From: an uncultured Oscillospiraceae bacterium
GTDB lineage: Bacteria > Bacillota > Clostridia > Christensenellales > Aristaeellaceae
Length of the DNA: 49,991 bases
Direction: 5' to 3'
Assembly (NCBI GenBank): GCA_964563725.1
Contig: CAZLYF010000002.1
Location: forward strand, 1-49,991
Shown here: positions 3,285-27,528 of the stretch, piece by piece
Layout of the letters: each line of letters starts with the position of its first letter
How positions within the stretch are numbered: the stretch's first letter is position 1
Program-made: the position numbers and the translations under genes
The notes under the pieces: model-generated
The model's input: the letters and a program-made list of their open reading frames with translations, nothing else
Told to the model about the DNA's origin: nothing
Databases searched by the model: none

Positions 3285-4740
3285 GCTGGCGCTGTCCCTC
3301 TCCCTCGCGCTGCTGGCGCTGTCGGTGGCGGTCGGCCTGACGTTCTCGGCGCTGTTTCGCCAGTACACCGTGAAAAAGGCCAGGGAAGACCTGTCGCAGA
3401 AGGCGGACCTGATCCTTTCGGCCCTTTCGGCGGACGCGTCCGGCGGCCCTCCCATGGGTCCCGGGGCGCGGGGCCGCGCGGGGGACGCGGCGGGCAGCGC
3501 CGGGCGGATGGCCTGGTACAGCCGTTACCTGGATGCCCTGAGCGAGCAGGCGGACACGGACGCCTGGCTGGTAGACGAGGAACTGCAGCTCATCACCGGG
3601 AACATGCGGAGCCTCACCTACGGCGACCTCCCGCCGGGGGCAGAGGAGGTCGTGCGGGAGGTGTTCCGGGGCGAAACCGTGTTCAGCAGCGGCTTTGGCG
3701 CCTTGACCGGCGAGCCTTCCCTGACGGCTGGCGTCCCTGTCTACACGGCCGGCCAGGTCACGGGCGCGCTGCTGCTGCACGCCCCCCTCGAGGGCCTCAA
3801 CGAGGCGCAGCGGGAGGGCGTGCGTATCCTCCTCATCAGCATCGGGGCGGGGCTGGCCCTGTCGATCCTCCTGTCGCTGCTGACGGGGCGGATGACCACC
3901 GGGCCGCTCAAGAGGATTCGCCGGGCGTCGCTCCTGATCGCCGGGGGCGACTACGCGGCCAGGAGCGGGGTGCGCAGGGGGGACGAGATCGGGGAGCTGG
4001 CCGAGGCGATCGACACGCTCGGGGAAAGGCTGGACGAGGCGCAGCGCGAGCACGAGACGACCGAAAAGCTGCGGCGCGAGTTCATGGCCAACGTCAGCCA
4101 CGAGCTCAAGACGCCCGTCACGGTGATCCGCGGCTCCCTCGAAGCGCTCAGCGACGAGGTGGTCACCTCCCCGCAGGAGGTGAAGGAGTACTACCGGCAG
4201 ATGCTCAGCGAGACCAGCGTCCTTGAGCGGCTCATCAGCGACCAGCTGGACCTGAGCAAGCTGCAGAACCCGGACTTCCAGATGGAGATGCAGGACAACA
4301 ACCTCTGCGACGTCCTGAGCGACGCGGTGCGCAGCGCGCGCCAACTGGCGCAGGCAAAGGAGATCGCCCTCTTCCTGCGGCTCGACCGGGAACATTTCCC
4401 GTTCCGAGGCGATTACAGCCGCCTGAGGCAGATGTTCATGATCGTACTCAACAACGCCGTGAAATACTCCTTCCGCGGCGGGGAGATCGACGTGACGCTT
4501 CAGGGGAGCGCGGTGACCGTCAGGGACCGGGGGATCGGCATCTCTCCCGAGGACCAGGCCCACCTGTTCGAGCGCTTTTTCCGCGTGAGCGCCCACGGGA
4601 ACGCCGAAGGCTCCGGACTGGGCCTCGCCATCGCCAGGCAGATCGCCCGCAGACACCGGGTCGATATCAGCCTCAGCAGCGCGCCCGGCGAGGGGACGGA
4701 GGTGCGCTTCGTTTTTCCGCAGGGGAGCGCCCCATCCTGA
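3265..4740 (+). CDS. Sensor histidine kinase (TM-sensor-TM-HAMP-HisKA-HATPase)
   Basis: N-terminal TM helix (LALSLSLALLALSVAVGLTF) and a second TM (ILLISIGAGLALSILLSLL). H-box FMANVSHELKTPVTVIRGSLEAL, N-box VLNNAVKYS, G-boxes DRGIGI and GSGLGLAIARQIARRH. Overlaps the regulator gene by 20 nt. Confidence 0.9.
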   Translation: MKTIAGKLALSLSLALLALSVAVGLTFSALFRQYTVKKAREDLSQKADLILSALSADASGGPPMGPGARGRAGDAAGSAGRMAWYSRYLDALSEQADTDAWLVDEELQLITGNMRSLTYGDLPPGAEEVVREVFRGETVFSSGFGALTGEPSLTAGVPVYTAGQVTGALLLHAPLEGLNEAQREGVRILLISIGAGLALSILLSLLTGRMTTGPLKRIRRASLLIAGGDYAARSGVRRGDEIGELAEAIDTLGERLDEAQREHETTEKLRREFMANVSHELKTPVTVIRGSLEALSDEVVTSPQEVKEYYRQMLSETSVLERLISDQLDLSKLQNPDFQMEMQDNNLCDVLSDAVRSARQLAQAKEIALFLRLDREHFPFRGDYSRLRQMFMIVLNNAVKYSFRGGEIDVTLQGSAVTVRDRGIGISPEDQAHLFERFFRVSAHGNAEGSGLGLAIARQIARRHRVDISLSSAPGEGTEVRFVFPQGSAPS

Positions 4741-20354: not shown

Positions 20355-21562
20355 ACGCGGTCATGTACGGCGCCGGGAACATCGGCCGGGGCTTTGTGGG
20401 CGCCCTGTTCAGCCAGTCCGGCTACAGGGTGACCTTCATCGATGTGGCGAAGGCGGTGGTGGAGCGTCTGCACCTCAGCGGCCGCTATCCCGTGCGGATC
20501 GTGTCGGACGAAGGCAACCGGGACATGGAGATCACGGGCGTGGACGCCGTCGACGGAGGTGATCCCGAGGCGGCCGCGCAGGCGATCGCGGAGGCAGACA
20601 TCATGGCGACCGCGGTGGGCGTCAAGGCCCTGCCGCTGATCATGCCCAACCTCGTCTCCGGCCTCCGCCGGCGCTTCGCGCTCGGGCGGCCGCCGCTGAA
20701 CATCCTCCTGTGCGAGAACCTGAACGACGTGCACAAGGTGGTCGAAGGGCTTCTGAGGGAGCGGATGACGGCGGAGGAAGCGCGGCTGCTCAATGACAGG
20801 GTCGGCCTGGTGGAGGCCTCCATCGGCCGGATGGTCCCCGTGCAGACGCCCGAGATGCAGGACGGCGATCCCCTGCGCGTCTGCGTGGAGGCGTACGGCT
20901 TCCTGCCCGTGGACCGCGCCGCCTTCAGGGGCGGGATCCCGTCCGTCAGGAACATGATCCCCTTTTCTCCCTTTGATTTCTACGTCAAGCGCAAACTCTT
21001 CCTCCACAACATGGGTCACGCCGCCTGCGCGTATCTGGGGCTGTACACAGGCAGGCGCTACATCTGGGAGGCGGTCGGGGACCCCCTCATCGAGCTGGCC
21101 GCCCAGAACGCGATGCAGGAAAGCGCTGTCGCGCTTTCGAAGAAATACGGCGTGCCCCTGCCCGATCTGCTCGATCACGCGCAGGACCTGCTCGGCCGTT
21201 TCGGCAACAGCGCGCTCAAGGACACCTGCGCCCGCGTCGCCGCCGATCCCGGCCGCAAGCTGGCCGCTTCCGACAGGCTCACGGGCGCCGCGCGGCTGTG
21301 TCTCCAGACCGGCGTCACGCCGGCCTTCATCTCCCTCGCCGCCGCCGGCGCGGTCCGCCTCTACCTGGAGGAGACGGGCCGGGAGCAGACGGGGGAAGGC
21401 GCGGCGCGCGCGCTGCGGGAGTTGTCGGAGCTCTCCCCCGGGGACGAACCGGGCGCGATGATCCTCGGCATGCACGGACTGCTCGCCGCCCGCCGGCCGC
21501 CGGAGGATCTGTACAGGGCGGCCAAGAAGCTCAGGCTGTCCCGCCTGGGTGAGATCATCTAG
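20351..21562 (+). CDS. Mannitol-1-phosphate 5-dehydrogenase-family enzyme (long-chain polyol-phosphate dehydrogenase)
   Basis: The start overlaps the aldolase stop (ATGA). MNAVMYGAGNIGRGFVGALFSQSGYRVTFIDV matches the MtlD N-terminus (FGAGNIGRGF). An HNMGHA block lies further along. Confidence 0.75.
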   Translation: MNAVMYGAGNIGRGFVGALFSQSGYRVTFIDVAKAVVERLHLSGRYPVRIVSDEGNRDMEITGVDAVDGGDPEAAAQAIAEADIMATAVGVKALPLIMPNLVSGLRRRFALGRPPLNILLCENLNDVHKVVEGLLRERMTAEEARLLNDRVGLVEASIGRMVPVQTPEMQDGDPLRVCVEAYGFLPVDRAAFRGGIPSVRNMIPFSPFDFYVKRKLFLHNMGHAACAYLGLYTGRRYIWEAVGDPLIELAAQNAMQESAVALSKKYGVPLPDLLDHAQDLLGRFGNSALKDTCARVAADPGRKLAASDRLTGAARLCLQTGVTPAFISLAAAGAVRLYLEETGREQTGEGAARALRELSELSPGDEPGAMILGMHGLLAARRPPEDLYRAAKKLRLSRLGEII

Positions 21563-21578
21563 CGCCATCCGGCGCCTG

Positions 21579-21608
21579 TTGACACCAGTTTACCCTTTTC
21601 GATACAAT
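21579..21608 (+). promoter_or_regulatory. Near-consensus sigma-A promoter of the SPFH/ESCRT-III/Vps4/TIR operon
   Basis: TTGACA (21579-21584), 18-nt spacer, TACAAT (21603-21608), 40 nt upstream of the ATG at 21648. It follows a small hairpin, GCGCC-atcc-GGCGC (21562-21575), at the end of the sugar operon. Confidence 0.65.
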
Positions 21609-21647
21609 ACCGTTCAGCCGGTGTCGCCGTCCGTCACGAACACGAGG

Positions 21648-22670
21648 ATGCATCCAGTGAACAGCGGAAATAGGGTCACGGTCAGCGAAGAGGGGGACTT
21701 CCTGGTCTGGAGGCACCCGGATACGGCGTTTTCAAAGGACGCGGTGCTGAGGGTGCCGGCGGGATATGAGGTGATCATCGAACGCAACAACGTCCTGTCG
21801 GACGTCTACCGCGAGGGGAGCACGGTTTATCCGGGCAGGCGGGAGGGCGGCTTTGGGCTTGCCCTCCGGGAAAAACCCGCGGTGCGCGTTTATTTCTTCA
21901 GGAAGCTGCCCGGCAGGCCGCAGCGCTGGGGCGTGGGCGGCATCCGCTTTTCTGACAGGAACACGAATGAAACCGGACGCCTGGGCGCCCTGGGCACGTA
22001 CAGCGTCGTTCCGGTCAGCGCGAAAAAACTCCTGCGGCACGCGATGGGCTTCGGCGGACAGCTCGTATCCAGGGAAATCGCCTCCTGTCTTGAGCCGGAC
22101 ATCATCAGGACGGTCAGGACCGAAATCGCCAGGCTGGTTCAGGACGGGGGGATGGCCTCCCTGGGCGGGCGCCTTGACGGCGCCGCCGAAGCGATCAAGG
22201 AGGCCCTGCAGCCAAAGTTCGAGGAGTACGGGATTCGGATCGAGTCGTTCCAGATCCTGAATGTCGAGATCATGGACCGGGATGGCGAACGCGCCGCGGC
22301 GCGGGGCGACCCCGCTCCCCCGGACACAGGGGGAGGCTTTCCCGGAAAGGAAGGTCAGGAAGAGGAAATGATCGCAAGCAAACGGATCGGCGAGAGAAAC
22401 ATCGAGTCCCGCAATGAGACGGCCAACCTGTTCACCAAAGCCGGCGAGCGCGTGAAGCCGCGCGGATACAAGGAAAGGCTGCTGAAGCTGGAAGGGGAGC
22501 TGATGCTCAGCGAGAGCGCTGACAGGGACGCCGTCCGATTCGACATGGAGCTCAGGACCCTGCTGGCCGAATTTCCCAGGGTCGTCGAGGAAGGGATCGA
22601 GACCATCGCCGAACGCTATCTGGAGCGGATGCGCTACCTGATCGGGAAAAGGAACGGGGAGCCGGGCTGA
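21648..22670 (+). CDS. SPFH-domain protein of the YdjI / 'virion core protein-like' type, with a helical C-terminal extension
   Basis: EGDFLVWRHPDTAFSKDAVLRVPAGYEVIIERNNVLSDVYREGSTVYPG matches the beta-rich N-terminal signature of YdjI-type SPFH proteins. KFEEYGIRIESFQILNVEIMD is a typical SPFH domain end. About 90 extra charged/helical residues follow. GTG at 21657 is an alternative start. Confidence 0.7.
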   Translation: MHPVNSGNRVTVSEEGDFLVWRHPDTAFSKDAVLRVPAGYEVIIERNNVLSDVYREGSTVYPGRREGGFGLALREKPAVRVYFFRKLPGRPQRWGVGGIRFSDRNTNETGRLGALGTYSVVPVSAKKLLRHAMGFGGQLVSREIASCLEPDIIRTVRTEIARLVQDGGMASLGGRLDGAAEAIKEALQPKFEEYGIRIESFQILNVEIMDRDGERAAARGDPAPPDTGGGFPGKEGQEEEMIASKRIGERNIESRNETANLFTKAGERVKPRGYKERLLKLEGELMLSESADRDAVRFDMELRTLLAEFPRVVEEGIETIAERYLERMRYLIGKRNGEPG

Positions 22671-22728: not shown

Positions 22729-23442
22729 ATGACAGGGAACAAGGGTTTTTTCGGAAAGCTGTTTAGCCGCGGGAGGCCGCAGGAAGAGCTGTCCGCGGAC
22801 GAGTGCAGAGCCCGCCTGTTCAGGCTGAACAACAAGCTTGACGAGGAAAATGATAAGCTCAGGAAGGCGGAGAAGGAGCTTGAAGAGCTGAAAACCGAAG
22901 CCGTCAGGCTCAAGACGGGCGGCGCCGGGAGCGCGAGCGGGAACGCGCGCTACGAGCTGGTCAAAACCAGGGCCGAGGGCGTGATGGCAACCATCACAAG
23001 CCATACCGGCAGCGTCAGCCTGCTGATGCGCGAGATCAGAAACCTCAGCGACTATGCCACGGCAAAGGGGATGAAGCAGATCGTCGACCTGATCGGGCAG
23101 TCGAGGCTTCCCGACACGGAGACGCTGTGGGACGAGCTTGACCAGGCCGTCATCGCGCGGGAAGCGCTGGTGGAAGGACAGAAAAGCGTCAGGTCGCTGC
23201 TCGACGAGGCGCTGAAGGACGCGACGGCCGAAACGGGCGGCCGGGAGAAAACGGAATTCGACAGGCTCGTCGATCGGGAAGTGGCGGCCATGAACAATAT
23301 CGCCGACATCACCGGGGAGCGTCCAGCCGCAACCGAGGCAGGGCCTGAAACGGAAACCAGCGGACCGCAGAACGGGAAGAAGGGTCCTGAAGAAGATAAA
23401 GCCGAACCGGCCGCACAGGCGGATCCCGATCGCGGCAAGTGA
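22729..23442 (+). CDS. ESCRT-III superfamily (Snf7/PspA-like) coiled-coil protein, paralogue 1
   Basis: 237 aa. N-terminal amphipathic GFFGKLFSRG is like MGLFGK/MGLFDRL of CHMP/Vipp1. It is followed by a long helical hairpin (RLFRLNNKLDEENDKLRKAEKELEELKTEAVRLK ... ARYELVKTRAEGVMATITSHTGSVSLLMREIRNL), shorter helices, and an acidic Thr/Pro-rich tail. AAGGAG RBS 12 nt upstream. Confidence 0.6.
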   Translation: MTGNKGFFGKLFSRGRPQEELSADECRARLFRLNNKLDEENDKLRKAEKELEELKTEAVRLKTGGAGSASGNARYELVKTRAEGVMATITSHTGSVSLLMREIRNLSDYATAKGMKQIVDLIGQSRLPDTETLWDELDQAVIAREALVEGQKSVRSLLDEALKDATAETGGREKTEFDRLVDREVAAMNNIADITGERPAATEAGPETETSGPQNGKKGPEEDKAEPAAQADPDRGK

Positions 23443-23473: not shown

Positions 23474-24118
23474 ATGTTTTTCAAGTCGGCTGCCCGGAAG
23501 GCACAGGAAAACAAGGCGATGATCAGGCAGAACCTGCGGGAACTGACGCGCTGGGTAGCGGCCCTGGAAAAGAAAAAGGCGAGCATGATCGAGAGCGCCC
23601 GCACAGCCAGGGCGCAGGGGCTGACCTCGCAGTACAATTTCGCCTTCAACGCGCTGAAGATGCTCATCAACCATCAGAAGCGGGCGCGCGCGATGAAGCT
23701 GCAGGTGGAGATGGTGGAAAACCTGCGCGACCTGAGCAATATGAGCTCAGACTTTTTCAGGCTGTTTGGAAAGGTCGGCAAGGAAGTGTCGGACGCGGCC
23801 AGGAACATGAACTATTCCAAAAACCTCGCCTCCTTCGAGACGGGGATGACCGCGGTCGACCAGACGCTCGCGCAGCTGCAGGACTTCATGGACGAAGCCC
23901 AGATGACCTATGAGGAGATGCCCGGGATGGACGAGGAATCGGGCGTCGACGACGAGATCAGGCAGCTGATCGACGTGACCGGCGCCATGAAGCTCGACGA
24001 CAAGGACCAGGTGCCGCATACCGCGCAGAGAGCCGGGGCCGGGCTGGAGGACGCGGCGCTCGACGAAGACATCGAGCGGCGCCTGCAGGAGATCCGCGGC
24101 AGGCGCGCCAACCCCTGA
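23474..24118 (+). CDS. ESCRT-III (Snf7/CHMP-like) protein, paralogue 2, with C-terminal MIM1 motif
   Basis: ATG at 23474 lies 8 nt after GGAGGGG; GTG at 23453 is the alternative. 214 aa. MFFKSAARKAQENKAMIRQNLRELTRWVAALEKKKASMIESARTARAQG...FAFNALKMLINHQKRARAMKLQVEMVENLRDLSNMSSDFFRLFGKVGKEV...TLAQLQDFMDEA follows the alpha1-alpha5 layout of CHMP proteins. An acidic linker follows, and the last helix DEDIERRLQEIR fits MIM1 (D/E)xxLxxRLxxL(K/R). Confidence 0.7.
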   Translation: MFFKSAARKAQENKAMIRQNLRELTRWVAALEKKKASMIESARTARAQGLTSQYNFAFNALKMLINHQKRARAMKLQVEMVENLRDLSNMSSDFFRLFGKVGKEVSDAARNMNYSKNLASFETGMTAVDQTLAQLQDFMDEAQMTYEEMPGMDEESGVDDEIRQLIDVTGAMKLDDKDQVPHTAQRAGAGLEDAALDEDIERRLQEIRGRRANP

Positions 24119-24254
24119 ACGGGAAAGCCCCGCGGCCGCGGCGTCAGGGCGCTTCAAAACGCGGGGCAGGCGGCGGACAGGAGCCGCTCCCGCCCGCAGG
24201 CGGCGGGCCTGAAGGCGTTCGGACGGCGGACGGAGTCAAGGGAGAGGTGACAGG

Positions 24255-25427
24255 ATGACAGGCCCGGCCAGCGAATCCCTGATCGAAGTATTCAACAGCT
24301 ACTACAGCACCGCCAAGCAGAAGGAAAAAGAGGGGCGCTGGGGGCAGGCCGCCAGGCTGTACCGGTATGCCGCGGAAACGATGCTCCATATCGCCAGGGC
24401 TTCGGACGGAGAAACCAGGAAAGCGCAGATCTCGCGCGCCGACAGGCTGACGCAGCTTTCGGACGCGCTGGAACAAAAGGAAAAAGAGGGGACGGAAGGC
24501 AAAAACCCCGCCTCGGGGGCTCAGCCGAAGACGAACAACCCTGGTCAAAGGGGCGACGCGGACCCGGGCACGCAGTGGGAGGCCGAACCTGTCCCGGCAG
24601 TTTCGTTTGAGGACGTGGCGGGCCTAGGCGAGGTCAAGCGCATCGTGACTGAACGGATCATCGATCCGATGAGGCATCCCGACCTGTACCGGCAGGTCGG
24701 ATTGAAGTTCAATACGGGCGTCCTGATGTTCGGGCCGCCCGGCACGGGCAAGACGACCATCGCCAAAGCCATTGCGCACGAGGTCAACGCGTCGTTTTTT
24801 CTGGTGCAGTGCGACAAGGTCCTGTCAAAGTGGTATGGAGAATCGGAAAAGATCGTCCACGAACTGTTCGCAGCCGCCCGCAAACAGCAGACCGCCGTGA
24901 TTTTTTTCGACGACTTTGACGGGATCGGCAGGACGCGCGACGGCAGCCACGAGGCCTCCAGCCGCATCATCACCCAGCTGCTGGTGGAGATGCAGGGTTT
25001 CAGCGAAGACGATACCACCATCCTGCTGCTTGCCGCCACGAACCGGCCCTGGGACATCGACAGCGCCTTTACCCGGGCGGGCCGTTTTTCCTCGATGGTC
25101 TATGTCCCGCTCCCGGACGAGGAGACGAGGCTGTTTCTGCTGAAGCTGCAGTTCAAGGGCGTGCAGCTGGCGGAGGACATCGGCATGAAGGCGTATGCCG
25201 CGCGCCTCCGCGGCAGAAACGGCGCCGACATCGTGGAATTCTGCACCGCCGCCAAGCACAGCGCAGTGAAGCGGGCGAGGGCCGCGCGAAAAGACCTGGT
25301 GACCCTCTGCGGGCAGGATTTTGAGGAAGCCATGGCGACCACGCGCTCCACGGTGCGCAGTGATTCGCTGGAAAAGCTGCACGCGTTCATGAGGCGGGAA
25401 GGGTACCCGATTCCCGACGAGATGTAG
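24255..25427 (+). CDS. Vps4-like AAA+ ATPase with N-terminal MIT-like domain
   Basis: The N-terminal ~80 aa (YSTAKQKEKEGRWGQAARLYRYAAETMLHIARASDGETRKAQISRADRLTQLSDALEQKEKEG) parallels the Vps4 MIT three-helix bundle. Walker A GPPGTGKT (24732-24755). Pore loop 1 LSKWYGESEKIV is almost identical to Vps4 SKWLGESEKLV. Walker B VIFFDDFD. SRH LLAATNRPWDIDSAFTRAGRF...VYVPLPDEETR. Confidence 0.8.
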   Translation: MTGPASESLIEVFNSYYSTAKQKEKEGRWGQAARLYRYAAETMLHIARASDGETRKAQISRADRLTQLSDALEQKEKEGTEGKNPASGAQPKTNNPGQRGDADPGTQWEAEPVPAVSFEDVAGLGEVKRIVTERIIDPMRHPDLYRQVGLKFNTGVLMFGPPGTGKTTIAKAIAHEVNASFFLVQCDKVLSKWYGESEKIVHELFAAARKQQTAVIFFDDFDGIGRTRDGSHEASSRIITQLLVEMQGFSEDDTTILLLAATNRPWDIDSAFTRAGRFSSMVYVPLPDEETRLFLLKLQFKGVQLAEDIGMKAYAARLRGRNGADIVEFCTAAKHSAVKRARAARKDLVTLCGQDFEEAMATTRSTVRSDSLEKLHAFMRREGYPIPDEM

Positions 25428-25453: not shown

Positions 25454-26791
25454 ATGCGGATGCAGAGGATCAAGTGCCGGGAGTGCGGCGGCTATATCAC
25501 CGACGTCGACCCGGACAGCCTGGTGGTCCGTTGCGGGAATATCGGGTGCGGGGCGGTGCAGCTGCTCATGGACGACCGGACGCTGCCCGTCGGGGAGGGC
25601 GACCGCGAACAGACGGTGGCAAAGCTCCTGTCGTCCGCGGGGGACAGCCTTGACAACTGGCGCTTTTCCCAGGCGGCCCGCGCTGCCTCTGAGGTCCTCC
25701 TGCTCGATCCCGGGCACTTCCTTGCAAACTTTTATCTCCTGTTCGCGCAGCGCGGGGAAAGCGGCGCGGATCCGCGGGACTACGAAAGCTTTCTGAAGGA
25801 GAAACACGACGCGCCGCCCGAGCAGCTGCGGACCGCCGCGGGCCATGCCCTGTCCGGTTTCCGCCTCAGGGAGGCAAACGCCCTCGGCGTCTTCATCGAC
25901 CAGTCCTTTTCGGGATGGGACCGCGACACGCTGCGCCTGCGCCTGAAGGAACTGGCCGCCCTAAGGATCCTGCAGGAGGAGAACTATGCCCTGATCCCGC
26001 GGGACGTGTTCATCTGCCTTCAGAGCGACGACCTGCCGGTCGCGGAAAAAATCTGCGACATGCTGACCGGCGACGGCATTTCATGCTGGATCTACACGCG
26101 CAACATGCCTCCCCACTGTTCCCGGTACGGAGAGGTCATCAGGTACGCGATCGGCGCCTGCAAGGTGTTTCTTGTGGTCGCGTCGTACGCGTCCATGCAC
26201 CTGAGCGAAGACGTCAAGGAAGAGATCCGCATCGCCTCGGGCCTGAACTGCGCGCGCCTGGAATTCAAGGTCGACGGCACGGAGCACACGGGGCTTTTCA
26301 GTCATTTTTTCAAGGGGATCACCTGGATCGAAGGGCAGGAGCGGGCCGATTCCCAATTTGAGAGGCTCAAGGAGGCGGTCAGGAGGGAGCTTTTCGCTTC
26401 ACAGGAAGCCGCCCCCCGCCAGGCGCCTCCGCCCGCGCTGTTTTTGCATGAAACGGACCGCGGGCACGACGTGGTCCGCGTCGACGAATCCGGGTCGGAG
26501 CTGGGAAGGCCGAAAAAAAACCTTGACCACCCCCACGCCTTCCTGAGCGTGTATATGAAGGTCAGCGGTACGCAATGCCGTTTCCTGTATCACGACGGGC
26601 TGTGGCACGTGGCCGACGCGGGCTCGAAGAACGGGACTTTTCTCAAGGGGCTTGACGGGAGCTGCCGACGCCTTGAGCCGCAGGCTGAAAACCGGCTCGC
26701 CGACGGGATGATCCTCAACCTCGCGGGGCAGATCTCCTTCAGGGTCCGGTACGCGAAAGCGGGAGAAACGCCGGCGGAGGGAAAAACGTGA
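25454..26791 (+). CDS. Zn-ribbon / TPR-like / TIR / FHA multidomain protein
   Basis: CRECGG...VRCGNIGCG zinc ribbon (aa 8-32). TPR-like AGDSLDNWRFSQAARAASEVLLLDPGHFLANFYLLFAQ. TIR block DVFICLQSDDLPVAEKICDMLTGDGISCWIYTRNM...YAIGACKVFLVVASYASMHLSEDVKEEIRIA (aa ~183-300). C-terminal FHA block ELGRPKK...VSGTQCRFLYHDGLWHVADAGSKNGTFLKG...LADGMILNLAGQISFRV (aa ~335-433). Confidence 0.75.
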   Translation: MRMQRIKCRECGGYITDVDPDSLVVRCGNIGCGAVQLLMDDRTLPVGEGDREQTVAKLLSSAGDSLDNWRFSQAARAASEVLLLDPGHFLANFYLLFAQRGESGADPRDYESFLKEKHDAPPEQLRTAAGHALSGFRLREANALGVFIDQSFSGWDRDTLRLRLKELAALRILQEENYALIPRDVFICLQSDDLPVAEKICDMLTGDGISCWIYTRNMPPHCSRYGEVIRYAIGACKVFLVVASYASMHLSEDVKEEIRIASGLNCARLEFKVDGTEHTGLFSHFFKGITWIEGQERADSQFERLKEAVRRELFASQEAAPRQAPPPALFLHETDRGHDVVRVDESGSELGRPKKNLDHPHAFLSVYMKVSGTQCRFLYHDGLWHVADAGSKNGTFLKGLDGSCRRLEPQAENRLADGMILNLAGQISFRVRYAKAGETPAEGKT

Positions 26792-27528
26792 TCAAGGTCC
26801 ATGCCGTCGTCGACATCGGATGCGTCCGGGAGAAAAATGACGACCGCGCGCTTGTGGGCGGAACAGTCCTCGGCGAGGGGGCCCGCAGCGCGGAGTTTGA
26901 GGACGGCGTCCTGATCTGCGTGGCGGACGGCGTCGGCGGAAGCGGCGGCGGCGGCCTCGCCGCCGAGGCCGCCCTGAAGGCCCTGGGCAGCGCGCCCCTT
27001 CCGGCAGGCAGGAGAGAGATCGAAGCGCTGCTGCAGTCAGCCAACGATGCGGTGCTTGCGCTTCAGCGCAGCGCCGCCGCCCTGTCCCAGGCGGCGACGA
27101 CCGTGGCCGGCGTTGTGCTCAGGGACGAAGGCTGCATGGTTTTTCACGCGGGGGACAGCCGCGTGTACAGGATCCGCCGCTCCCGCCTTTCCTGCCTTAC
27201 GGTGGACGACAGCCTTGTGCTCAGGCTGGCGCCGGGAGGCCTGATGCCCCGGGACGCAGCGGCGTCCCCCCGCGGAGGCATCACGCGCTGGGTGGGCCGA
27301 AGCGAAGGCTTCGAGGCAGAAATCGCGGAAGAGACGGGAGGGTTCTATCAGGGGGACGTCCTGCTGCTGTGTTCCGACGGGCTTTACGCGGAGCTTAAGG
27401 AACCCCTGCTGGAAAAAGCCCTGGCGGAGGAGAGGGACGGCGAAGCGCTCTGCCGCGGCCTCGTGGACAGGGCAAGGGCACTGGGCGGCAGGGACAATAT
27501 CACCGCGATCGTTGCCGTGAAGGAGTGA
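26788..27528 (+). CDS. PP2C-family Ser/Thr protein phosphatase
   Basis: The GTG start overlaps the upstream stop (GTGA). REKNDDRALV, ICVADGVGGSGGGGLAAEAA, TTVAGVVL...MVFHAGDSRVYRI, LLLCSDGLY and GGRDNITAIVAVK are the conserved PPM motifs with the metal-binding Asp residues. Confidence 0.9.
   Translation: MIKVHAVVDIGCVREKNDDRALVGGTVLGEGARSAEFEDGVLICVADGVGGSGGGGLAAEAALKALGSAPLPAGRREIEALLQSANDAVLALQRSAAALSQAATTVAGVVLRDEGCMVFHAGDSRVYRIRRSRLSCLTVDDSLVLRLAPGGLMPRDAAASPRGGITRWVGRSEGFEAEIAEETGGFYQGDVLLLCSDGLYAELKEPLLEKALAEERDGEALCRGLVDRARALGGRDNITAIVAVKE

Follow-up and report, generated by a model that had tools for sequence, protein, structure and literature searches.

We analysed a stretch of 49,991 nt (the window) from contig CAZLYF010000002.1 of an uncultured Oscillospiraceae bacterium (GCA_964563725.1), in which eight genes lie head to tail on the plus strand between approximately 21.5 and 30.6 kb, with gaps of -4 to 136 nt (Table 1). 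The first four genes encode an SPFH/Band-7 protein, two helical proteins referred to here as ESCRT-III-like paralogues 1 and 2, and an AAA ATPase; they are followed by genes for a TIR-FHA protein, a PP2C phosphatase, a Ser/Thr protein kinase and a multi-pass membrane protein. The original prediction, made from the nucleotide sequence, was that paralogue 2 ends in a type-1 MIT-interacting motif (MIM1) and that the following gene opens with an MIT domain resembling that of Vps4, so that both halves of an ESCRT-III/Vps4 recruitment interface would be encoded by neighbouring genes of a bacterium. Our data make it likely that the operon specifies a bacterial ESCRT-III/Vps4-type membrane-remodelling module, in which the tail helix of paralogue 2 would recruit the MIT-AAA ATPase.

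The start of paralogue 2 was assigned to ATG 23474, because a GGAGGGG Shine-Dalgarno sequence lies 5' of this codon and the resulting N-terminus fits the MxxFKSK pattern of the family. Paralogue 2 alone retrieved one relative in a word-indexed search. A family profile seeded with relatives derived from synteny recovered 555 proteins, and an exhaustive hidden Markov model (HMM) search defined a family of 560 clusters (50% identity), of which 299 scored E ≤ 1e-10; all members are unannotated or 'hypothetical', and neither Pfam nor NCBIfam holds a model for the family. We found that Pfam Snf7 (PF03357) matched 19 of 106 diverse full-length members (best E = 1.4e-9), that the family member P0351 exceeded the Pfam gathering score (28.9 versus 27.3 bits), and that no other Pfam family recurred among the 106, PspA_IM30 not being among the recurrent matches. 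When a profile built from these 106 sequences was run against the PDB, human CHMP2A (7zcg_B) was matched with E = 5e-5 (positions 6-150) and CHMP1B with 0.019. A profile of five sequences gave coiled-coil noise against the PDB; it took deeper profiles to reach Snf7 and CHMP2A. The AlphaFold2 model of paralogue 2 (predicted local distance difference test score, pLDDT, 77) has helices at residues 6-47, 51-109, 115-147 and 155-177, followed by a low-confidence acidic linker and a confident helix at residues 192-212 (pLDDT about 91 at 201-210), an arrangement that reproduces the α1-α2 hairpin, α3-α5 and separate C-terminal helix of the ESCRT-III fold. When the model was compared with the PDB by Foldseek, the top 16 matches all belonged to the ESCRT-III superfamily, 15 being Snf7-type and one Vipp1, with CHMP2A first, followed by CHMP1B, CHMP3, Shrub, Vps24, CdvB, Snf7 and Asgard ESCRT-III; the probabilities were mostly 0.9-1.0 and the E-values weak (at least 0.015), as expected for flexible helical hairpins. 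By the transitive evidence of its relatives, the family profile and the predicted structure, the 214-aa protein is identified as a genuine member of the Snf7/ESCRT-III family, in agreement with the original prediction.

The motif DEDIERRLQEIR, encoded at 24062-24097, corresponds to residues 197-208 of paralogue 2, and translation of 24062-24118 yields DEDIERRLQEIRGRRANP (residues 197-214) and the stop codon. All six constrained positions of the MIM1 consensus (D/E)xxLxxRLxxL(K/R) are satisfied (D1, I4, R7, L8, I11 and R12), with Ile for Leu at positions 4 and 11. A search with the pattern [DE]xx[LI]xxR[LI]xx[LI][KR] returned this motif as the sole match among the 99,978 six-frame residues of the window, and the chance of finding the pattern within the last 30 residues, estimated from 200,000 composition-preserving shuffles of paralogue 2, was 7e-5. 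The fit to the consensus and the acidic linker in front of it, both of which had been claimed beforehand, are thus present, and the consensus helix stands at the extreme C-terminus after a flexible linker, as is characteristic of MIM1. Tail statistics were collected from 226 full-length family members: 202 show hydrophobic residues at a spacing of i, i+4, i+7 in their final 28 residues, 118 satisfy a relaxed MIM1-like pattern that closes with K/R, and two, namely the window protein and P0301, have the strict form with Arg at its centre. In the usual tail of the family, (S/D)xxI(D/E)KE(M/L)xx(L/I)(R/K)KKI, position 6 is Lys and position 7 is Glu, and the commonest version is I-D-K-E-M-E-E-L-R-K-K-I. 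The strict MIM1 is, in other words, a peculiarity of this lineage and not the norm of the family, and the description of the motif as 'textbook' is apt for the window sequence but not for its relatives.

Residues 1-78 of the ATPase, used as a single query in phmmer against the PDB, gave MIT domains of VPS4B and VPS4A as the top eight matches (E = 8.7e-4 to 0.078). A 24-sequence profile of the same region matched the MIT domains of an oomycete chitin synthase (1.4e-5), Sulfolobus Vps4 (0.012) and VPS4A (0.015), as well as VPS4B MIT and calpain-7; it also matched TPR repeats strongly, which MIT domains are known to resemble. In the AlphaFold2 model of the ATPase (pLDDT 86), helices at residues 4-25, 29-48 and 52-78 have pLDDT values of 93-97, and residues 81-105 are disordered (pLDDT < 50), so that residues 4-78 combine similarity to known MIT domains with an isolated three-helix bundle and a flexible linker. 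On this sequence and model evidence, the N-terminal domain encoded by the gene after paralogue 2 is an MIT domain. The Vps4-MIT-like character proposed for 24255-24488 was therefore borne out; the three-helix bundle, on whose absence the proposal was to have been abandoned, is clearly predicted, and the VPS4B sequence that had been quoted for comparison agrees with PDB chains 2jqh and 4u7y.

Beyond the MIT domain, the ATPase has the architecture of Vps4/CdvC, consisting of MIT domain, linker, single AAA cassette and C-terminal helix. The cassette contains Walker A GPPGTGKT, pore loop 1 SKWYGESEK, Walker B FFDDFD, sensor-1 N263 and Arg fingers R274 and R277; the ATPase family shows no variation in Walker A, the sensor-1 Asn or the two Arg fingers. 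The pore loop block SKWYGESEKIV..LF..AR is far closer to SKWMGESEKLV of Vps4 than to TMWFGESEAN of p97 D2, Pfam Vps4_C matches 29 of the 41 family members, and the NCBIfam CdvC model aligns end to end (residues 8-380 with 6-366 of 370). By BLASTP, the whole ATPase is collinear with VPS4A (residues 18-378 with 14-429), whose reference sequence was verified in its MIT part only. Neighbour-joining trees placed a monophyletic bacterial family as sister to Vps4 plus spastin in 192 of 200 bootstraps (96%), a figure that fell to 165 of 200 (82.5%) when the references were restricted to verified ones, those of yeast Vps4 and spastin agreeing 100% with the PDB; these trees were small, and archaeal Vps4, PAN and VAT sequences were not included.

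Paralogue 1 has a basic/hydrophobic N-terminus and an acidic Pro/Thr-rich tail in which no MIM1-like helix was found, and it matched no family in Pfam or NCBIfam; its own family has a conserved tail of a different kind, IYG...LL.MFE...KKKK.KMEE. When the profiles of the two families were aligned by HHalign, they were collinear over approximately 165-175 columns (probability 84-86%, E = 5-8e-6), and it is for this reason that speaking of two ESCRT-III paralogues appears reasonable. Paralogue 1 may reasonably be regarded as a distant paralogue, the ESCRT-III assignment being more secure for paralogue 2.

The arrangement of these genes is conserved. The closest relative of paralogue 2 lies on a 1.2-kb metagenomic contig that carries the same three genes as the window and in the same order, and contigs with relatives of the ATPase encode an SPFH protein (with Zn-ribbons), a small transmembrane protein, in some cases a small protein of TPR-like type, both paralogues and the AAA protein; the neighbours of this core operon are ribosomal-protein operons or yabP/yabQ. 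When one genome of each GTDB species was scanned, 39 loci were returned, nearly all in metagenome-assembled genomes (MAGs) of Clostridia (Christensenellaceae, Lachnospiraceae, Eubacteriales and Ca. Caccovivens), with a few in Erysipelotrichaceae and Anaeroplasmataceae; one locus in an 'Acidiphilium' MAG is probably a binning error. In an HMM-based tabulation of 43 related loci, the paralogue-2 gene is directly 5' of the AAA gene in 38, counted after duplicate and anomalous loci had been dropped; these loci retain the MIT domain as well as the tail helix, which supports the claim that motif and MIT domain are encoded in adjacent genes. The Band_7_1 gene was found in 37 of the 43. Genes for the SPFH protein and both paralogues occur together in 33 loci, sometimes in permuted order, and the AAA gene is also present in all of these except two, which end just after paralogue 2. 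The system is not a one-off in this bacterium but is widespread in Clostridia; the view that such a pair would be remarkable in a bacterium of this type is justified in that the operon is bacterial, but the window is not a singular case. The TIR-FHA, PP2C and Ser/Thr kinase genes, by comparison, are an addition in the lineage of the window and the signalling genes are absent from most genomes. At the locus of the nearest ATPase relative (48% identity; L007), the AAA gene is followed by an FHA gene, a PP2C gene and, at the contig end, a gene in the kinase position, a downstream order that agrees with the window. Its positional orthologue (3328-4131) of the Zn-ribbon-TIR-FHA protein has a Zn-ribbon-like N-terminus and FHA but no TIR, and the TIR of the window therefore looks like a recent insertion.

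The features of the operon are listed in Table 1. Because the SPFH open reading frame, as called mechanically, has the promoter candidate within its 5' extension, the true start of this gene is probably ATG 21648 (MHPVNSG...); the 5' part of the called frame (21549-21647) also overlaps the end of the preceding gene. The SPFH protein has a coiled-coil extension at its C-terminus, and the kinase has a long C-terminal region to which no type was assigned. The multi-pass membrane protein had no family match in Pfam or NCBIfam, and it is the 12-nt gap to the kinase gene that suggests its membership of the system. The spacer between the paralogue 2 and ATPase genes (24119-24254) is GC-rich and 136 nt long, compared with 3-20 nt in most relatives; its folding energy was no better than that of shuffled sequences (z = -0.6), and no convincing terminator was found in it. 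The remaining genes of the window are ordinary bacterial chromosomal genes, including those for a WalK-like histidine kinase, a sugar ABC transporter, α-galactosidase, rhamnulokinase, FeoB, GlnA and GltBD. The G+C content of the window is approximately 65%, in contrast to 25-53% in all the related loci (L001-L048), and the window proteins are singletons in a collection of 15 billion proteins, suggesting that the host is a rarely sampled, unusually GC-rich carrier of the system.

Table 1. Features of the operon, with positions in the window and the evidence or remarks that apply to each
Feature	Position	Strand	Evidence or remarks
Sigma-70-like promoter candidate, TTGACA-18-TACAAT (11/12)	21579..21608	+	Upstream of the operon
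SPFH/Band-7 protein (Band_7_1 type, YdjI-like family)	21549..22670	+	First operon gene; Pfam PF13421, E = 2.8e-9
ESCRT-III-like paralogue 1, 237 aa, helical	22729..23442	+	Profile-profile match of its family to that of paralogue 2
ESCRT-III (Snf7-type) paralogue 2, 214 aa, helical	23474..24118	+	Pfam and PDB profile matches of the family, model, fold search
C-terminal amphipathic helix of paralogue 2, residues 192-212 (predicted)	24047..24109	+	Model; contains the MIM1-type motif
Vps4-like AAA ATPase, 390 aa (MIT, disordered linker, one AAA cassette, C-terminal helix)	24255..25427	+	
MIT domain, ATPase residues 4-78	24264..24488	+	phmmer against the PDB, family profile, AlphaFold
Predicted disordered MIT-AAA linker, residues 79-110	24489..24584	+	pLDDT 31-37; length and sequence vary across the family
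AAA cassette, lid and C-terminal helix 369-382	24585..25424	+	Model, family alignment
Zn-ribbon (N-terminal) + TIR + FHA (C-terminal) protein, 445 aa	25454..26791	+	Pfam TIR_2 4.2e-8, FHA 1e-6
PP2C Ser/Thr phosphatase	26788..27528	+	NCBIfam Stp1/IreP family 5e-40; Pfam PP2C_2; start overlaps preceding gene by 4 nt
Ser/Thr protein kinase, 703 aa	27525..29636	+	Pfam Pkinase 2.7e-20
Multi-pass membrane protein, 321 aa	29649..30614	+	Last gene of the tight cluster; hydrophobic segments in translation

Several variants of the system were seen among the relatives. The Snf7-like domain of the paralogue-2 family also occurs as the N-terminal module of fusion proteins, joined either to FtsK/SpoIIIE translocase domains (P0293, P0300 and P0313) or to a RuvB-like AAA module with a NERD or TnsA-like nuclease after it (P0286, P0299, P0327, P0366 and P0388), and these architectures suggest ESCRT-III-like membrane targeting of DNA-handling enzymes. 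At many loci the AAA gene is immediately followed by a gene for a protein of 1,170-1,520 aa (L005 9098-12913, L011 8796-13013, L016 9575-14137, L017 9931-13830 and L040 8775-12566), for which the window has no counterpart; the N-terminal part of this large protein is similar to the small TPR-like protein of the operon, PKD, PPC and FG-GAP-type extracellular domains were matched weakly, and the protein could be a cargo, sensor or anchor. In a Ruminococcus bicirculans MAG (L048 2204-6868), two Snf7-like + AAA pairs are arranged in tandem, the second AAA protein having 736 aa, and several other loci encode ATPases of 646-712 aa that retain the MIT domain.

The closest mechanistic analogue of the paralogue 2/ATPase pair is provided by the eukaryotic Vps2/CHMP2 and Did2/CHMP1 proteins with Vps4. 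Like CHMP2 and CHMP1, paralogue 2 has a Snf7 core, a basic/hydrophobic N-terminus, an acidic flexible linker and a terminal MIM1-type amphipathic helix; like Vps4, the ATPase begins with a three-helix MIT domain that a disordered linker connects to a single AAA cassette, whose pore loop follows K-W-x-G-E-S-E-K and after which comes a C-terminal helix. CHMP2A and CHMP1B match paralogue 2 best in sequence and fold, and the best matches of the ATPase N-terminus are the VPS4A/B MIT domains. Unlike eukaryotic MIM1, the tail has Ile at two Leu positions and, in most relatives, Glu for the central Arg, and unlike eukaryotic Vps4, the ATPase has no β-domain and hence no site for a Vta1/LIP5-type cofactor. 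Components of ESCRT-I, ESCRT-II or the ubiquitin system were not found nearby in the window; the partners are instead the SPFH protein and, in the lineage of the window, the kinase, phosphatase, FHA and TIR proteins, and the genes of the pair lie next to each other, co-transcribed, in a bacterium.

At the level of the system, the closest analogues are euryarchaeal ESCRT loci ('Main', 'Halo_FHA' and 'Meth_adaptin'; Makarova et al. 2024, PMC10936438). As in archaeal CdvB/CdvC systems, one or more ESCRT-III genes lie immediately 5' of the MIT-AAA ATPase gene. Some archaeal ESCRT types include FHA proteins, Ser/Thr kinases and phosphatases, and one type includes an SPFH protein with Zn-ribbons (PMC10936438), an accessory repertoire that is mirrored in the window and its relatives. 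Unlike the archaeal sets, however, the operon is in a bacterial host with Clostridia relatives, the ATPase scores 186 bits with the CdvC equivalog model (cut-off, 650 bits), and no CdvA, winged-helix (arCOG09748) or Cas2-like partners were seen. The motif differs as well, crenarchaeal CdvB using one of MIM2 type and the window one of MIM1 type. A second parallel is with the PspA-YdjGHI system: in Bacillus subtilis, the SPFH protein YdjI tethers PspA to the membrane (PMC10936438), and here too an ESCRT-III-superfamily polymer protein is encoded together with Band_7_1 SPFH and Zn-ribbon modules, the SPFH proteins of loci L005 and L008 having C-terminal Zn-ribbons. By this analogy, a role in membrane maintenance as in PspA/Vipp1 systems is plausible. 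Unlike PspA/Vipp1, the presumptive polymer proteins are Snf7-type and have a classical MIT-AAA unfoldase as partner; PspF, a σ54 activator, has no relationship to Vps4 (PMC7619361).

What is shown here is homology for each part, how the domains are arranged, that the motif is present and how far it is conserved, and a conserved gene order; the following mechanism may be proposed. By analogy with YdjI and PspA in B. subtilis, the SPFH Band_7_1 protein would mark or organise a membrane site, at which both Snf7-type paralogues, positioned by it, would co-polymerise on the cytoplasmic side of the membrane. Once paralogue 2 is part of the polymer, its flexible acidic linker would expose the C-terminal amphipathic helix, which would dock in the groove between helices 2 and 3 of the ATPase MIT domain in the manner of type-1 MIMs, known to lie in the MIT H2/H3 groove parallel to helix 3 (PMC9477494). 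Docking would concentrate the ATPase on the polymer and lead to hexamers, which would thread subunits through Vps4-type pore loops, so that the filament is remodelled or disassembled; such remodelling might then drive membrane repair, scission or vesiculation. In the lineage of the window, the kinase, PP2C and FHA reader, to which a TIR domain is attached, may gate the module by phosphorylation, with the Thr/Ser-rich tail of paralogue 1 as a speculative candidate for the kinase substrate.

Candidate biological roles are membrane repair, vesiculation, division or sporulation, and a response to conflict. The housekeeping neighbourhoods of the core operon argue for a cellular function, and the TIR and kinase additions in the window allow for specialisation in stress or conflict. 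Taken further, the window's version of the module might be a conflict/abortive-infection or other stress-signalling system and not one for housekeeping membrane maintenance, the kinase, PP2C and FHA protein sensing an insult, the TIR domain and/or the ESCRT-III-like polymers acting as effectors on NAD+ or the membrane, and the ATPase resetting the system. The presence of a TIR_2 + FHA fusion, PP2C and Ser/Thr kinase within one tight operon would fit such a system, as would the best NCBIfam and PADLOC matches of the kinase, which are defence-associated kinases (MAD6 and PD-T4-6), the fusion of Snf7-like relatives to NERD or TnsA-like nucleases, and the Walker B Glu-to-Asp change, which is confined to the lineage of the window and suggests altered ATPase kinetics. 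However, PADLOC detected no specific known defence system among the window genes: none of its models matched the SPFH, ESCRT-III-like or TIR-FHA proteins, and its ATPase matches (IetA and TRIP13) reflect generic AAA similarity. The core operon, moreover, lies beside housekeeping genes and lacks the signalling genes in most genomes, and archaeal ESCRT systems that include FHA proteins and Ser/Thr kinases and phosphatases have had no defence role proposed for them (PMC10936438). We consider a conflict system unlikely; it concerns the biological role and would be compatible with the MIM-MIT mechanism.

For an ESCRT-III/Vps4-type module with tail-helix recruitment, which we favour, a number of observations are unfavourable. 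Paralogue 2 itself has no Pfam Snf7 match at E ≤ 0.1, and a search of NCBIfam was likewise empty; the Pfam MIT model (PF04212) alone gave E = 0.014 with the window ATPase, under its cut-off; and the CdvC score is, as noted, well below the cut-off of that model. In pairwise comparisons, p97 D2 scored 193 bits, above VPS4A (183, for a reference sequence verified in its MIT part only) and yeast Vps4 (179), and the top 50 Foldseek matches of the full ATPase model were all p97/Cdc48, since the AAA core dominates the comparison. The β-domain insertion was not found in the model, in which the lid helix (323-343) is followed by helices 353-362 and 369-382 with a one-residue strand between them, the protein being 390 aa long as against 437 aa for yeast Vps4. 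At Walker B, D219-D220 (24909-24914) has Asp at the position of the catalytic Glu, as do 4 of 40 relatives (5 of 41 sequences in alignment A3, including the FHA/PP2C-linked P0004 of L007), the rest having D-E, and the ATPase may consequently be slow. An appearance intermediate between Vps4 and p97 is unsurprising, since Vps4 itself has been argued to derive from Cdc48 (Makarova et al., PMC10936438). The ATPase is Vps4-like in architecture and probably, although the evidence is mixed, in clade: the architecture and pore loop are of the Vps4 type, but there is no β-domain and the core is, by pairwise score, about as close to p97 D2 as to Vps4.

The tail raises further difficulties. At MIM1 position 7, Glu takes the place of Arg in most of the family, so that the interface, if real, would not be chemically identical to the eukaryotic one. 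MIT helix 3 is more basic in Glu7 lineages (ERARRL) than in the window (SRADRL), a difference that looks like a charge swap, and the strongest charge anticorrelations, between MIT residue 63 and MIM position 7 (r = -0.78) and between residue 70 and position 14 (r = -0.76), have one register in common, as packing parallel to helix 3 would give. However, values of r ≤ -0.75 were also obtained between the tail and AAA columns (2 of 1350, versus 2 of 390 for tail and MIT; not significant), and because the AAA domain gives equal values, we did not count the co-variation as evidence. The identification of window D63 with the acidic, Arg-contacting residue of VPS4 MIT was also rejected, the helix-3 alignment being gapless or having a 6-residue gap according to the method.

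With Glu where the key Arg is expected and a charge co-variation at background level, it may be asked whether the parts are indeed homologous to ESCRT-III and an MIT-AAA ATPase but the tail helix is not mainly a recruitment motif. It would then be an autoinhibitory or lattice-contact helix (α6), or a dock for the SPFH protein or the small transmembrane or TPR-like proteins, and the MIT-like domain would recognise something else, for example the tail of paralogue 1. MIT domains bind tails in at least seven modes (PMC9477494), the MIT family profile matches TPR repeats strongly, and paralogue 1 has its own conserved tail, all of which leave room for such an arrangement. The tail nevertheless combines the exact MIM1 spacing of i, i+4, i+7 and a terminal basic residue with a position at the extreme C-terminus after an acidic linker, and the paralogue-2 gene is nearly always directly 5' of the MIT-AAA gene. 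Nor are autoinhibition and recruitment mutually exclusive. In eukaryotic ESCRT-III, the same C-terminal region serves both. We therefore regard a tail without a main function in recruitment as rather improbable, as we do each of these other functions for the helix and another ligand for the MIT-like domain. Convergence, in which a generic coiled-coil protein and a Cdc48-like unfoldase with a TPR-like N-domain would have acquired a MIM1 by chance, is disfavoured and in our judgement very improbable, for although the window protein alone has no significant Pfam match, the 5-sequence profile found only coiled-coil noise in the PDB, the ESCRT-III Foldseek E-values are weak and the top structural neighbours of the ATPase are p97, Snf7 is the sole recurrent Pfam family among the relatives, CHMP2A comes up with the deeper profile, VPS4 MIT chains take the first eight places in the single-sequence MIT search, the motif has a low chance level and synteny is kept across about 40 genomes.

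Snf7-type proteins have been described as archaeal/eukaryotic and PspA/Vipp1 as bacterial (PMC8281802). A Vps4-like ATPase 'appears absent in bacteria', so that the disassembly of bacterial ESCRT-III polymers was left open, and this absence has been used to infer the function of ESCRT-III in LUCA, the last universal common ancestor (PMC7619361); according to a passage in a further paper, ESCRT components beyond PspA/Vipp1 are identifiable in archaea 'but not in bacteria' (PMC10936438). Main-text passages of Ravi et al. 2024 (PMC11237479) report that bacteria, too, have VPS4-like AAA ATPases, which are read there as archaeal transfers, and state that some bacterial members of the PspA/Snf7 clade associate with AAA+ ATPases. 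The VPS4-like cases described there differ from the present operon in that snf7 is displaced by a TPR + 6TM (transmembrane) protein, and the other contexts involve Snf7 homologues bearing transmembrane segments with ABC transporters; an operon of SPFH, two Snf7 and MIT-AAA genes in Clostridia, with a MIM1-like tail, is not mentioned in those passages. Judging from them, the bare idea of a bacterial Snf7/VPS4-like association is not unprecedented. Our search of the full-text literature turned up neither this Clostridia operon nor a MIM-MIT pair from a bacterium, and we lean, with some reserve, towards the view that Snf7-type proteins and a dedicated Vps4-like MIT-AAA ATPase, coupled by a MIM1-like tail, constitute a native and widespread machine of Clostridia.

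If this is true, the ESCRT-III/Vps4 pair and its MIT-MIM recruitment code are not confined to archaea and eukaryotes, and they either were present before bacteria and archaea separated or moved between domains in ancient times, accompanied by SPFH and Ser/Thr-phospho accessory genes. An operon that combines Snf7, MIT-AAA and MIM1-like components and is conserved in bacteria would directly test the statements of absence made in reviews, and would offer a minimal two-subunit system for the study of ESCRT-III/Vps4 mechanics in vitro. It would also link SPFH microdomain proteins, Ser/Thr phospho-signalling and ESCRT-type remodelling, in parallel with the euryarchaeal systems, and the FtsK and RuvB-nuclease fusions hint at bacterial uses in division, DNA segregation or conflict. 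For the Clostridia themselves, it would add a new and wholly unannotated protein family that is common in members of this class from the gut.

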